Assembly (NCBI GenBank): GCA_965221215.1
Contig: OZ244872.1
Span: forward strand, 1,636,936 to 1,700,935
Length of the DNA: 64,000 nucleotides
Source of the DNA: Candidatus Aldehydirespirator sp.
GTDB lineage: Bacteria > Actinomycetota > Acidimicrobiia > Acidimicrobiales > Aldehydirespiratoraceae
Reading direction: 5' to 3'
The translations under genes were made by a program, and so were the position numbers. Under the pieces are notes generated by a model. The model was not told the DNA's origin. It did not search any database and saw nothing but the letters and a program-made list of their open reading frames with translations. This document shows, piece by piece, positions 5,086 through 8,706 of this stretch (positions are counted from its first letter, which is position 1; every line of letters starts with the position of its first letter).

Positions 5086-5340
5086 CACGCACCGAGTGCC
5101 CGCCACGAGCGCACCGACCGCGAGGCGGAGCGGCCTGGAGATTCGCCCGCATGAACCGGGCTTGCGCCTACCCGCTCGACCCCTGCGGATCGGCCTCAAC
5201 TCGCGGCGCATCATGCAGGATGAGGTCTGGAGCCTCTATCCTGATCGAATGGCCAACAGTCAGCGTCATTGTTCGCGCCCTCGTTCGCGTGCTGTGCTGA
5301 GGCCCGACCCGACCGCGAATTGCATGAGAGGATTCCGACC

Positions 5341-8300
5341 ATGATGATCCGAACTGCTACTGCGCCCCCCCCCCCCAGAATGAGGGTTCTGCAGCGACGT
5401 CTGCCGCTGCTCGGGCCTGCGGTTGCGCTGGCGGTGCTGGCCGCGCTGCTAGCGGTCCCACCGACGCCTGAGGCAGCCGCCCAGGGCAACATCACCGTCC
5501 AATTCGGCCAGGGCTTCACCGGTGACGGGACGGGAGCCGGCTACAACGCACGCGAGGGCGACGCGGTACAGGCCAAGCTGACCTTCAGCTCGGCGACCAC
5601 GGCCCAGGAGACCTTCACCATCAACACCACTGCGGGCACGGCCACCGCCGGAACGGACTTCACGGCCGGCCCTCACACCTGCGATGTTCCCTCGGGCCGC
5701 ACCTCCCATGTCTGCAACATCCCCGTCCTAGCCGACGATCAGATCGAGGACTACGAGAAGTTCACTGTCACGCTGGCATCGCCACCGCCGGGTTTCGTGC
5801 TGGGCTCTAGGTCCACCGCGACGGTTCAGATCGTGAACGTCAGCGTCGTTCCCGACAATTGGAGCCTCAAGCCCAGCGGTGTCAACGCCGGCGAGCAGTT
5901 CCGGCTGCTGTTCAAGACCCACAACGAGCGCGACGGCAGCGCCAGCACCATTTCCACCTACGACACGTTCGTGCGCAACCGGGTCAGCGGCGCGAGCACC
6001 GGCCACGCCGACATCCGCCAGTATTCGTCGACGTTCCGGGTGGTGGGCTCGACGCCGACGGTTGGCGCGGCGTGGCATACCGCCACGGGCATCATGGTGA
6101 GCAGCGAGCCCAGCCACACGCCGTTCAGCCATCGCATCTACTGGCTGAACGGCCCCAAGATCGCCGATGACTACAACGACTTCTGGGACGGCACCTGGGA
6201 CGACAACAGCCCCGGCGCCCATCGCCGGGCCAACGGCAACGCCTCCACCAACACCCGGGGGCCCAACACCGGCACCCGGACTGGCACCACCCATGCCACC
6301 GCCGGCACCAAGAAGCCCAGCAGGGCGCTGGGCAACAGCAGCAACCAAACAAGATGGGGCGGCGGCGCCCAGAGCCAGAACCCGATCGACCAGGGCGACA
6401 TTCCCACGGGCAACAACAACGTCTACATCGGCCTGTCGGGGATCTTCGAGGTGGAGGTCGAGAGCGACGAGGAGTTCGACGAGCTGTCGGCCAGCGTGAG
6501 GTTGGACAACGGCAGCGCCGGTCCTGCCCAGACCGGTGCCAACGTGGACTTCACCTTCTCGCTCGCCAAGGCGCGCAAGGCGAGTGATCTGAACGGCATC
6601 CGGACGCAGTTGGCGTGGTCGGGCGACGTGCTCAGCCCGCGCTCGGACCACCGCCCGGCGACATGGGACCGCTACAAGGTGAATCCCCTGTGGAAGCCGG
6701 ACGGGAGCGCCAGGGTGCATCACCGCGGCGTCTACGTGCGTCCCTGGCTGGAGAATTCCATCCTGGTCGGCGAGCAGAGCTTCAAGCTTCGCGTCCACGT
6801 CAAGAACCGCGAAGAGGCCGGCGGCAACGTCGGCAACGGCTGGATCGCCATGCGGGTGGCGGGCGGAGCCGGATACGAGGTGAGTCCCGACGACTGGGCC
6901 TGCATGCCGGTGGGCGGCGGAACCTGTCCGTCGGCATGGCCGGGCGTGCCCGCCGCCACCGTCGCCGGATTGCAAGCCTCGGTCGTGTCGGGGCAGGACG
7001 CCCGCTTCAGCGTCACCGTGAACCCTGCGCCCGGCGCCGGGGAGACGCGGCGTGTGTATCTGCGAACCTGGTACCGGTACCACCGCGGTGGCGGGCAGGA
7101 TCAGAACCAGGCGTTTCGCCACGTCGATGTGGGCTCAACCGGCACCGCGACTTTCACGATGCCCACACGCGTCAGCCGCGTGGGGCGCGGCCGCACCGCC
7201 AATGTGCAGGTTCAAGAGGACATCGCCTACACCAGCGACTCAGCGACCGCCTCGGTGGACGCCACCCGGTTCAATCCGTCGTCGCAGCCGTGCTGGTACG
7301 GCCACACCCACTACCCGGCTTCGTCGCCCTATGCGGTGACGAGCGGCACGCTCCGCCTGCCGGCCATGGGCATCACTGACTGTCTTTCGGCCGGTGAGAT
7401 CGACGATCTCGACGCAGGCGCCTACCGCACCGTCTGGACCACATGCAAGGTGGACTACGGGCACACGGACCACAGCCACGGCAGCTACAACGACAATAGG
7501 GGCGGCAGCCACGGCCACCATCGCTCCTATTCCCACACTCACAGGTTCGGCAACGGCAACTGCACCCATCGCGCCTACTCGTCGCAGGATGACGGTCTAA
7601 CCGACGCCCAGGCCGACGCAGTGCCCGAGACCGAGTTCCCCGAGAACAATCCGGTGCCCTGTGACGCAGCAGTTGCCATCGACAAGGCGAGGGCCGCGTT
7701 CAACTGGCACACCAGTTTCGGGGCCGACGCTCCCTTGTTCTGGCGGATCCTGAACACGCTCGGCACCGACGACCTGCCGGCGAAGCCGTCGGGGGTGACC
7801 GAGGAAACGATCTCGGCTCAGGACGTGAAGGACTTCAGCAACGGCAAGGGCTGGGCCGGCTGGGCACCCATCGTTGAGGCGATGGAACGGTGCACTGAGC
7901 CGGCTCCCGACCCCGTGGTGCCCGACCCCGACCCCGTGGTGCCCGACCCTGACCCGGTGGTGCCGGATCCTGAGCCTGATCCCGATCCCGAGATCAGCAT
8001 TGCCGCAGGCACCGCGGTGACCGAGGGCGGTGCCGCCACCTTCACGGTTTCGGCCAGTCCGCCGCCATCGTCGGCGCTGTCGGTGACCGTCACCGTGACC
8101 CAGAGCGGCGACTTCGCCGCGGCGACCGGACCACGGACGGTCACTGTCGGCACGAGCGGCAGCGCCACGGTGAGCGTGGCCACCACCAATGACAGCAGCG
8201 ACGAAGCCGACGGCTCGGTGACCGCCACCGTCAACAGCGGCAGCGGCTACACGGTCTCGGCCACCGCCAACTCGGCATCGGTGACGGTCTCCGACGATGA

Positions 8301-8706
8301 CGACCCATCGCCGCCTCCGCCTCCTCCTCCCCCGGTGGGTGATCCTGGGTTCTCTATCGAGGATGCTTCGGGCACAGAGGGCGAACAGGTAAGTGTCAGG
8401 GTGACCCTGTCGCACGCCTCGAATCAGCGGCTGAGGGTGTATTGGATACCCCAATTCGGCGGATCCGGCACCTGGGATTCCAGGAACCCCACCTGGGCGT
8501 TGCCGGGCAGCGACTTCGGCGCCGCGGGCGGCTGGCTGACGTTCCGACCCGGTGTGGTCGAACAGCATCTGCAGATCAACCTCCTAGAGGACTCCCTCGT
8601 GGAGCCCGCCGAGGAGTTCCAGGTGAACTTGTTGTTCGTGTCGCCCTACAGGGCCGTCCCCATCGCCGACGGCAGAGCCATCATCACCATCAACGACAAC
8701 GACTAG
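5341..8706 (+). CDS. Large secreted modular surface protein with Calx-beta domains (putative adhesin)
   Basis: SD-like AGAGGA before ATG 5341; hydrophobic signal peptide ending AAAQ; Calx-beta-like GTATAGTDF...LADDQIEDYEKFTVTL and a C-terminal LLEDSLVEPAEEFQVNL...ITINDND; Pro-Asp linkers. Confidence 0.85.
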   Translation: MMIRTATAPPPPRMRVLQRRLPLLGPAVALAVLAALLAVPPTPEAAAQGNITVQFGQGFTGDGTGAGYNAREGDAVQAKLTFSSATTAQETFTINTTAGTATAGTDFTAGPHTCDVPSGRTSHVCNIPVLADDQIEDYEKFTVTLASPPPGFVLGSRSTATVQIVNVSVVPDNWSLKPSGVNAGEQFRLLFKTHNERDGSASTISTYDTFVRNRVSGASTGHADIRQYSSTFRVVGSTPTVGAAWHTATGIMVSSEPSHTPFSHRIYWLNGPKIADDYNDFWDGTWDDNSPGAHRRANGNASTNTRGPNTGTRTGTTHATAGTKKPSRALGNSSNQTRWGGGAQSQNPIDQGDIPTGNNNVYIGLSGIFEVEVESDEEFDELSASVRLDNGSAGPAQTGANVDFTFSLAKARKASDLNGIRTQLAWSGDVLSPRSDHRPATWDRYKVNPLWKPDGSARVHHRGVYVRPWLENSILVGEQSFKLRVHVKNREEAGGNVGNGWIAMRVAGGAGYEVSPDDWACMPVGGGTCPSAWPGVPAATVAGLQASVVSGQDARFSVTVNPAPGAGETRRVYLRTWYRYHRGGGQDQNQAFRHVDVGSTGTATFTMPTRVSRVGRGRTANVQVQEDIAYTSDSATASVDATRFNPSSQPCWYGHTHYPASSPYAVTSGTLRLPAMGITDCLSAGEIDDLDAGAYRTVWTTCKVDYGHTDHSHGSYNDNRGGSHGHHRSYSHTHRFGNGNCTHRAYSSQDDGLTDAQADAVPETEFPENNPVPCDAAVAIDKARAAFNWHTSFGADAPLFWRILNTLGTDDLPAKPSGVTEETISAQDVKDFSNGKGWAGWAPIVEAMERCTEPAPDPVVPDPDPVVPDPDPVVPDPEPDPDPEISIAAGTAVTEGGAATFTVSASPPPSSALSVTVTVTQSGDFAAATGPRTVTVGTSGSATVSVATTNDSSDEADGSVTATVNSGSGYTVSATANSASVTVSDDDDPSPPPPPPPPVGDPGFSIEDASGTEGEQVSVRVTLSHASNQRLRVYWIPQFGGSGTWDSRNPTWALPGSDFGAAGGWLTFRPGVVEQHLQINLLEDSLVEPAEEFQVNLLFVSPYRAVPIADGRAIITINDND
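5365..5376 (+). repeat. Poly-C homopolymer (C12) in the 5' coding region
   Basis: GCG-CCCCCCCCCCCC-AGA, encoding APPPPR between the first ATG and the signal peptide. Confidence 0.9.
7906..7968 (+). repeat. 21-bp coding tandem repeat (PDPVVPD) x3
   Basis: CCCGACCCCGTGGTGCCCGAC twice exactly (7906, 7927), then a synonymous variant at 7948. Confidence 0.9.

Follow-up and report, generated by a model that had tools for sequence, protein, structure and literature searches.

Repeats that change the reading frame of a secreted or surface protein are well described in Neisseria, where they lie in the signal-peptide-coding region of pilC (poly-G) and opa (CTCTT), and where poly-C/G tracts are found with the meningococcal proteins NalP and MspA. 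Within the Actinomycetota, a tract in the 5' coding region frame-switches a surface or secreted gene in Bifidobacterium breve UCC2003 (the G tracts of pilus genes) and in Gardnerella (the poly-C tract of nanH3). Here we analyse a candidate locus of this kind in a stretch of 64,000 nucleotides (nt) from Candidatus Aldehydirespirator sp. (contig OZ244872.1, positions 1,636,936 to 1,700,935; hereafter the window), in which an uninterrupted run of 12 cytosines (C12) stands between a start codon and the signal-peptide-like segment of a gene for a secreted Calx-beta protein. The reading that we favour, with a probability of roughly 0.6, is that C12 acts as a slippage-prone translational phase-variation switch ahead of the signal peptide, in the ON state as assembled.

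As in Neisseria, the repeat separates the probable start codon from the mature part of a secreted or surface protein, slippage would change the frame and with it turn translation ON or OFF, and the locus belongs to a genome-wide contingency set that includes restriction-modification (R-M) genes. Unlike in Neisseria, the organism is a high-GC actinobacterial sponge symbiont without MutS or MutL, switching is a prediction from sequence, the tract is followed at a distance of 3 nt by an in-frame ATG that opens a complete signal peptide, and one of the OFF frames takes the form of an ATGA overlap. The B. breve and Gardnerella cases are single loci in gut and vaginal commensals, whereas the set described here is lineage-wide, with up to 84 tracts of at least 11 nt in a genome.

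Three further systems are informative. Cutibacterium (Propionibacterium) acnes is also an actinobacterium with dozens of tracts, nearly all of G or C, that are intergenic or frame-altering and whose variation follows clades, which has been interpreted as gradual accumulation (PMC4746626); here, in contrast, near-identical strains are 4 nt apart in tract length, and the host association and the gene families involved (Calx-beta/fn3 'eukaryote-like' proteins) differ. Mycobacterium tuberculosis shares with our organism the lack of MutS and the presence of NucS, and there, according to Vargas et al. 2023 (cited in PMC11551767), genes are reversibly silenced by 1-2-nt indels in homopolymers that go unrepaired. 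Mycobacterial tracts are short, at about 7-9 nt, and most of them lie inside genes for metabolism or regulation, whereas those described here measure 9-25 nt and cluster where surface and R-M genes have their 5' ends. Bordetella pertussis, like our organism, combines a high-GC genome with length-variable poly-C/G tracts that affect surface proteins, among them the C-stretch of the fim promoter (PMC1891110), a promoter-spacer role that C12 cannot take by its geometry. The mechanism is thus a known one (Neisseria, Bordetella, C. acnes and M. tuberculosis) and the locus taken alone would be an ordinary example of it, in a lineage unstudied in this respect; our literature search brought up no report of phase variation in sponge symbionts.

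The features of the locus are collected in Table 1. Upstream and across the tract the sequence reads GCATGAGAGGATTCCGACC ATG ATG ATC CGA ACT GCT ACT GCG CCC CCC CCC CCC AGA ATG AGG GTT CTG CAG CGA CGT CTG CCG, in which a first ATG (5341-5343) adjoins a second at 5344 and is preceded, at a spacing of 8 nt, by a Shine-Dalgarno (SD)-like GAGAGGA. The first C of the tract falls 24 nt past the A of ATG 5341, and the triplet AGA (5377-5379) separates the last C from a third ATG (5380-5382); all three ATGs are in frame in the open reading frame (ORF) that ends at 8706. Translation from 5341 gives MMIRTATAPPPPR-MRVLQRRLPLLGPAVALAVLAALLAVPPTPEAAA/QG, the slash marking the presumed cut. The anatomy proposed by an earlier, sequence-only reading holds in each of these respects: an SD-like motif precedes ATG 5341, the 12-C tract lies 24 nt downstream, in frame and ahead of the signal peptide, and ATG 5380 is preceded by Cs (...CCCCAGA) and has no SD. 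That reading had also called the product a surface adhesin, which is not established. Calx-beta (PF03160) is the only Pfam family in the protein (two matching stretches, 68.4 bits at a gathering threshold of 27), its sequence relatives in PDB are solely the Calx-beta domains of Na/Ca exchangers, and no recognisable anchor was seen in it; we refer to it as a secreted Calx-beta protein. Judged by eye, the succession of n-, h- and c-regions (MRVLQRR, LPLLGPAVALAVLAALLAV and PPTPEAAA/QG) resembles a Sec signal peptide, and the Tat-type RR of QRRLPLL is not retained in homologues, two of which (P0050 and P0059, P-numbers denoting homologous proteins) read WRLP.

Table 1. Features of the C12 locus, with positions in the window. 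G006 and G036 are related genomes and P-numbers homologous proteins, described in the text.
Feature	Position	Strand	Basis or remark
Conserved 64-nt block (SD, start codon and 8-codon leader), directly 5' of the tract	5301..5364	+	Alignment with G006 and G036
SD-like GAGAGGA	5326..5332	+	GAGG at -13 and AGGA at -12 relative to ATG 5341
Tandem in-frame starts ATGATG, start of the leader	5341..5346	+	Public gene call (P0002) of 1121 amino acids, i.e. start at 5341
C12 homopolymer, read as PPPP; proposed slippage site	5365..5376	+	Sequence; run spectrum; orthologues
In-frame ATG in ATGA context; alternative start and possible re-initiation site	5380..5383	+	Sequence; frame analysis
Signal-peptide-like segment MRVLQRRLPLLGPAVALAVLAALLAVPPTPEAAA, presumed cut before QG	5380..5481	+	By eye; kept in orthologues and in homologues P0006, P0007, P0010, P0050 and P0059
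TGA closing the out-of-frame leader ORF (42-44 amino acids) at C10, C13 and C16	5469..5471	+	Frame analysis; same frame as the assembled state of G036
Gene for the secreted Calx-beta protein	5341..8706	+	1121 amino acids from ATG 5341, 1108 from ATG 5380

The position of the tract has consequences for a switch of the promoter-spacer kind known from Bordetella fim and Neisseria opc/porA, where tract length sets the spacing between -35 and -10 boxes. Elsewhere in the genome, a C13 located 175 nt before a gene of 22,085 amino acids and a G25 before a pair of an ATPase gene and a giant gene, both in AT-rich DNA, have this appearance. C12, in contrast, ends 3 nt before ATG 5380 and follows an SD-led ATG, which leaves no room downstream for a -10 box and a leader, and no promoter-like hexamers were found, so that for this tract the model is ruled out by geometry and we assign it next to no weight. 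A scan for a sigma-70-type hexamer pair or a terminator, which is of little value in this phylum, found neither.

The choice of start codon is central to the argument. The 3' end of the 16S ribosomal RNA carries the anti-SD CCTCC, and SD tetramers peak genome-wide at -15 to -8, occurring there in 31% of crude starts compared with 10% of random sites. Those of ATG 5341 fall within this peak, whereas ATG 5380 has none. Because of this placement, the public gene call at 5341 and the C12 plus AGA that immediately precede 5380, initiation at 5341 is favoured, and from the SD together with its conservation we infer that ATG 5341 is the better-supported start. A leaderless start at ATG 5380 was considered and rejected, as its -10 box would sit within the C run.

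In the proposed mechanism, ribosomes would load at the GAGAGGA motif, initiate at ATG 5341 and translate the 8-codon leader and then the tract as PPPP. A tract length that is a multiple of three, such as the 12 assembled, would keep them in frame as they enter the signal peptide, so that the protein would be synthesised and exported. Slippage during replication would alter the tract by at least one base, a NucS-type repair system leaving the resulting loops uncorrected. An in silico series of tract lengths gives three outcomes. With 9, 12 or 15 Cs the leader is fused to the signal peptide, for a product of 1120-1122 amino acids, and C12 as assembled is in this frame. At 10, 13 or 16 the out-of-frame ORF of Table 1 spans the signal-peptide start, and by overlapping and occluding it would constitute the OFF state. 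With 11 or 14 Cs the leader ends after 13-14 codons (MMIRTATAPPPPE*) at a TGA whose first base directly follows the A of ATG 5380 (ATGA), and expression would be nil or at most at the level of re-initiation. Such stop/start overlaps are found in 366 of 1511 close same-strand gene pairs in the genome (24%), and re-initiation at 11 Cs is plausible for this reason. The OFF state at C11 and C14 is probably not a simple null and may be leaky, because the overlap of the leader's TGA with ATG 5380 has a geometry that permits re-initiation.

The repair background fits this scheme. The source genome (G000) is a single contig (C1) of 3,368,850 bp, or 3.37 Mb, and no match to MutS domain V (PF00488) was found across the whole of it, while NucS (PF01939) is present at C1:1809507-1809869. 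Mycobacterial NucS leaves 1-2-nt indels unrepaired, a gap that has been linked to homopolymer phase variation (PMC11551767). As NucS is present and MutS absent, slippage loops should escape repair.

A different kind of slippage, by RNA polymerase or by the ribosome on C12 itself (transcriptional slippage or programmed frameshifting), would let every DNA state yield some in-frame product and would make the tract a means of tuning dosage. Long homopolymers are known sites of RNA polymerase slippage, mainly as A/T runs. It is at A/T runs, however, that productive slippage mostly occurs, G/C hybrids being more stable; no stimulatory RNA structure is predicted around the tract, where the minimum free energy is no better than that of shuffled sequences (fold z=+0.6), and the tract region has no Rfam match. 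We consider this explanation very improbable.

Orthologues of the gene were found in three genomes besides the source genome, giving a set of four: G000, G006, G036 and the more diverged locus L025 (L-numbers denote homologous loci). G006 and G036 are metagenome-assembled genomes (MAGs) built with megahit from short reads. The orthologue MAGs are labelled Acidimicrobiia, and the homologues described below bear the NCBI names Candidatus Poriferisodalis or Poriferisocius. All four orthologues retain SD, ATG, leader and tract, the last of these ranging from C11 to C13. Over the 64 nt that precede the tract, G000, G006 and G036 are 100% identical, whereas the protein is 73% identical over its first 407 amino acids; the core TGCATGAGAGGATTCCGA and the leader ATG persist in L025. 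Its recurrence in four separate assemblies, including the two megahit MAGs from short reads, shows that the tract is no artefact of assembly. By comparison with G000, an insertion of 138 nt in both G006 and G036 adjoins the conserved block on its upstream side (window position 5300/5301; alignment A1, columns 431-568), and because of this insertion next to the SD and leader the promoter of the gene may differ between these species.

All three possible frame relations between the leader and the signal-peptide ATG are represented among the four orthologues. In G000 the 24-nt leader, C12 and AGA put 39 nt between the two ATGs and the leader is fused. The distance in G006 is also 39 nt, made up with C11 and GAGA, the last C having become a G by a synonymous change, and the leader is again fused. 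With C11 and GA the distance in G036 is 37 nt, and the leader runs through out of frame for about 43 codons. In L025, whose leader is ATGATCATCCGACCTGCTACTGT, C13 and a 20-nt spacer give 56 nt, and the leader ends as MIIRPATVPPPPEELGVLP* with its TGA overlapping the main ATG. Beyond this set, a scan of genome contigs with the leader pattern returned the same three orthologues and no others, JGI (Joint Genome Institute) metagenomes gave 0 matches to the leader pattern, a protein-guided scan for further copies gave 0 matches, and exact-protein look-ups from either start found no match.

The same arrangement occurs in homologous genes. The loci L026 and L059, from two samples of one sponge-metagenome study, belong to a Calx-beta/fn3 gene with the signal peptide MMGLIRRVPLLG and are 97% identical over 240 nt, with a tract of C11 in L026 (L026:569-579) and of C15 in L059 (alignment A2). 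As a result of this difference the upstream ATG is in frame in one of them, and in the other its ORF ends at a TGA inside the ATGATG start. The two loci also differ in a T run upstream, which is T5 in one and T6 in the other. At L057, GAAGG-N5-ATG leads into a 12-codon leader, C20, 25 nt and then ATG MRLPQWRLPLLG, out of frame. A second family has an SD-led leader of about 22 codons (K..GNR.SS...RR..S) before a tract of G12-G16. Within this sister family L027 (G14) is fused, and as no in-frame start lies between its tract and the signal peptide, the tract there must be translated; the leader stops at a TGA overlapping GTG in L031 (G12) and L032 (G16) and at a TAG in L033 (G12), in each case right after the tract. 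The predicted N-termini of 90 homologues are either extended through GGGG/PPPP or cut within the hydrophobic core, which is what frame-shifted states would produce. Tract length thus varies between related genomes, as the sequence-only reading had proposed to check: from C11 to C13 among the orthologues, and C11 against C15, and G12-G16, in homologous genes.

Several observations weigh against the switch and have to be set beside this evidence. The variable tracts of C. acnes track clades, a pattern that suggests gradual change and not fast switching (PMC4746626). Conservation of the leader does not extend to its peptide, since of four nucleotide differences that separate G000 from L025 three alter an amino acid, and G006 and G036 differ by the GA dinucleotide beside the tract, not by tract length. 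The assemblies and metagenomes searched yielded no same-species assembly with which to compare this gene. The tract in the long-read single-contig assembly may be off by one base, which makes the ON call insecure. The remaining points concern the start: ATG 5380 opens a complete signal peptide, gene callers begin five homologues (P0006, P0007, P0010, P0050 and P0059) at the Met equivalent to 5380, and L058 has a GGGGAGG SD between its C10 tract and the start, so that this tract lies upstream of the main ribosome-binding site.

These last points form the core of an alternative in which the protein starts at ATG 5380, with ATG 5341 and the tract forming a 5' untranslated leader or a non-productive upstream ORF. 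Tract length would then affect expression weakly or not at all, through spacing or as part of a C-rich leader, and there would be no frame-switched ON/OFF. The poor conservation of the leader peptide agrees with this view, as does a G-rich stretch 7-11 nt before the ATG of L025, and it would make unremarkable the fact that the upstream ATG is out of frame in three of the six assemblies that have both this signal peptide and an upstream leader start (G036, L025 and L057), since the frame of an irrelevant ATG does not matter. In G000, G006 and G036, however, the gap between tract and ATG is merely 2-4 nt and contains no SD, leaderless initiation would meet the difficulty with the -10 box noted above, and the upstream SD and ATG are kept in every orthologue. 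L027 offers no start codon at the corresponding place at all, and ribosomes that start from 5341 must in any case traverse the tract and the 5380 region, so that length would matter anyway. We regard a start at 5380 as unlikely. The phase-variation switch put forward by the sequence-only reading stands in part: the conserved SD-led start, the C11-C13 orthologues, the genome-wide tract set and the absence of MutS speak for it, whereas the use of that start, the rate of switching and the effect on expression are what we infer, and the OFF state may be leaky.

The genome as a whole provides further context for a switch. Runs of G or C number 6141, 1102, 79 and 3 at lengths 5, 6, 7 and 8, and then 4, 7, 7, 6, 4 and 4 at lengths 9 to 14, with single runs of 17, 24 and 25, making 35 of at least 9 nt; A/T runs reach a maximum of 7. 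The 35 long runs are a second mode of the length spectrum, beyond the ordinary sequence evolution of this genome, and C12, which exceeds the roughly 8 G/C at which a tract becomes prone to slippage, belongs to this mode. A dinucleotide shuffle of the window gave 4 overlapping matches to C9 against 3.7 expected, which does not reject chance and is uninformative because 69% G+C permits long C runs; it is the run spectrum of the genome itself that rejects chance. A crude gene call based on codon usage (2737 genes, 88% coding) was used to place the tracts, the start zone being defined as -200 to +90 of a gene start. Start zones hold 18 of the 35 tracts where 21% is expected (p=9e-5), and 23 of the 35 fall outside called coding sequences where 12% is expected (p=1e-13), while runs of 6-7 nt match the background in placement. 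Surface-gene partners of the tracts are Calx-beta and subtilase/Calx-beta genes and giant genes of 4678, 4957 and 22,085 codons; partners of the R-M kind are two Type ISP enzymes, one enzyme of MmeI/Eco57I type, ResIII helicases and a DPFAGGG methyltransferase. This mix is the classic make-up of contingency loci, and several of the tract-linked genes are split by a frame change precisely at the tract. Within the genus the number of tracts of at least 11 nt ranges from 0 to 84 per genome, compared with mostly 0-3 in other families of the order. In short-read MAGs of the genus many tracts of this length lie within about 100 nt of contig ends (e.g. G025:C9:4-15 and G026:C22:5-16), which suggests that MAG assemblies break at tracts.

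A check for paralogues with the TAPPPP leader, also proposed by the sequence-only reading, had a mixed outcome: in the source genome no paralogue has this leader and the leader DNA is unique, and analogous modules of leader plus tract are present. One of them is C1:1775299-1775309 (L054), where AGAGGA-N6-GTG opens the leader VNRPVGRRYWPIALL, followed by G11 and then by VIALLAAIVLFPQTAMA/SD (here amino acids). The gene encodes a 1995-amino-acid protein with a PPDK_N-like domain and Calx-beta, and its G11 lies within the signal-peptide codons, as can be told from the G006 orthologue (L055), which has no tract and reads LLG-IASLAAAV straight through. G11 is out of frame, with a TGA overlapping the GTG, and G9 or G12 would fuse leader and signal peptide. 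Judged by the tract-free orthologue, this tract is a lineage-specific insertion or expansion.

That tracts come and go in this way, as the comparison with G006 indicates, is also what would be expected if C12 were a by-product of mutation that is tolerated but serves no selected function. Where indels go unrepaired, G/C runs past about 8 nt would grow and would be maintained at sites that tolerate frameshifts, namely dispensable surface and R-M genes and intergenic DNA, their lengths drifting slowly between lineages with no role as switches. The clade-wise variation in C. acnes (PMC4746626) and the presence of tracts at housekeeping or odd sites, such as a C14 by a cytochrome b gene and others before amidohydrolase and MpaB-like genes, are consistent with this. 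It accounts less well for the 11-13 Cs kept uninterrupted in four orthologues despite protein identity of about 70-73%, for the same module in several gene families, for the strong enrichment at the starts of surface and R-M genes, or for near-identical strains that differ by 4 nt at the tract only, and we hold it to be quite unlikely.

Other members of the tract set deserve description in their own right. The tracts at C1:510212-510224 (C13) and C1:657874-657890 (C17) belong to paralogous giant genes of 4678 and 4957 codons, both with an SD-led 25-codon leader ORF (M..LRR.LVQA..ASRVGA) that runs through the tract; with C17 a 46-codon leader ends in a TAG over the GTG start (TAGTG), and with C13 the leader at 510212 runs 119 nt into the gene. 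Changes of coding frame occur at C1:2782048-2782061 (G14), 429631-429640 (G10), 1999980-1999990 (G11) and 388579-388590 (C12), tracts being given on the gene strand, in genes for a DPFAGGG methyltransferase, an MmeI/Eco57I-type enzyme, a Type ISP enzyme and a P-loop ATPase-like protein. All four may be phase-variable R-M or defence genes, and the assembly seems to have captured them in the OFF state. At C1:806433-806444 a C12 splits a subtilase/P-domain/Calx-beta/LapA surface protein into pieces of 132 and 1509 amino acids in different frames. The C14 at C1:3198762-3198775 falls in the interval from the preceding gene's stop codon to the AGGAGA SD of the cytochrome b gene (PF00033), a housekeeping respiratory gene and as such an odd neighbour for a hypermutable tract. 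An element of about 100 nt occurs twice in opposite orientation, at C1:1029782-1029829 and 1218738-1218780, with no gene called around either copy; its two tracts, separated by tcaggcccctagggccgcgcctcc, are, on the + strand, G11 and G13 in one copy and C9 and C10 in the other, and the element, with internal tracts that differ in length, may be a repeat or be mobile. Finally, tracts of C13 and C12 at C1:1534348-1534360 and 2185942-2185953 mark paralogous 3' ends with similar flanks (gcaacngccagcaC(n)g(g)cgacacggatc); one gene of the pair encodes a 1426-amino-acid Mrr/ResIII helicase-nuclease, in which a tract so near the C-terminus would alter the protein tail.

The frame relations seen across these loci raise a doubtful possibility, namely that the tract is not a binary switch but a three-position translational gate that recurs across the sponge-symbiont lineage. 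Tract length modulo 3 would then set the output: full expression from the fusion, low expression by termination-reinitiation where a stop lies over the start (ATGA, GTGA or TAGTG), and none where the leader runs on and occludes the start. A stop/start overlap is the assembled state at L025, L031, L032, L059, C1:657874 and C1:1775299. As 46% of the SD-supported starts of the genome have A at +4, chance alone should produce an NTGA overlap in one frame in about half of all cases, and the recurrence of these overlaps is only suggestive of design.

Under the favoured reading of C12 as an ON/OFF switch, the value of the locus is as a well-resolved member of the tract set, ON as assembled and with orthologues in the other two frames. 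The sponge-symbiont Acidimicrobiia (Poriferisodalaceae and relatives) are uncultured. They are enriched in Calx-beta, fn3, cadherin and leucine-rich repeat 'eukaryote-like' proteins as well as defence systems, with proposed roles in host recognition and in avoiding digestion (PMC11706023). In practical terms, the annotation of this protein class in sponge metagenomes is systematically distorted, because gene callers mis-start or truncate such genes and MAG assemblies appear to break where tracts occur. If these genes are gated by hypermutable G/C tracts, a symbiont population would each time be a mosaic of surface and restriction phenotypes, a form of bet-hedging as in mucosal pathogens.

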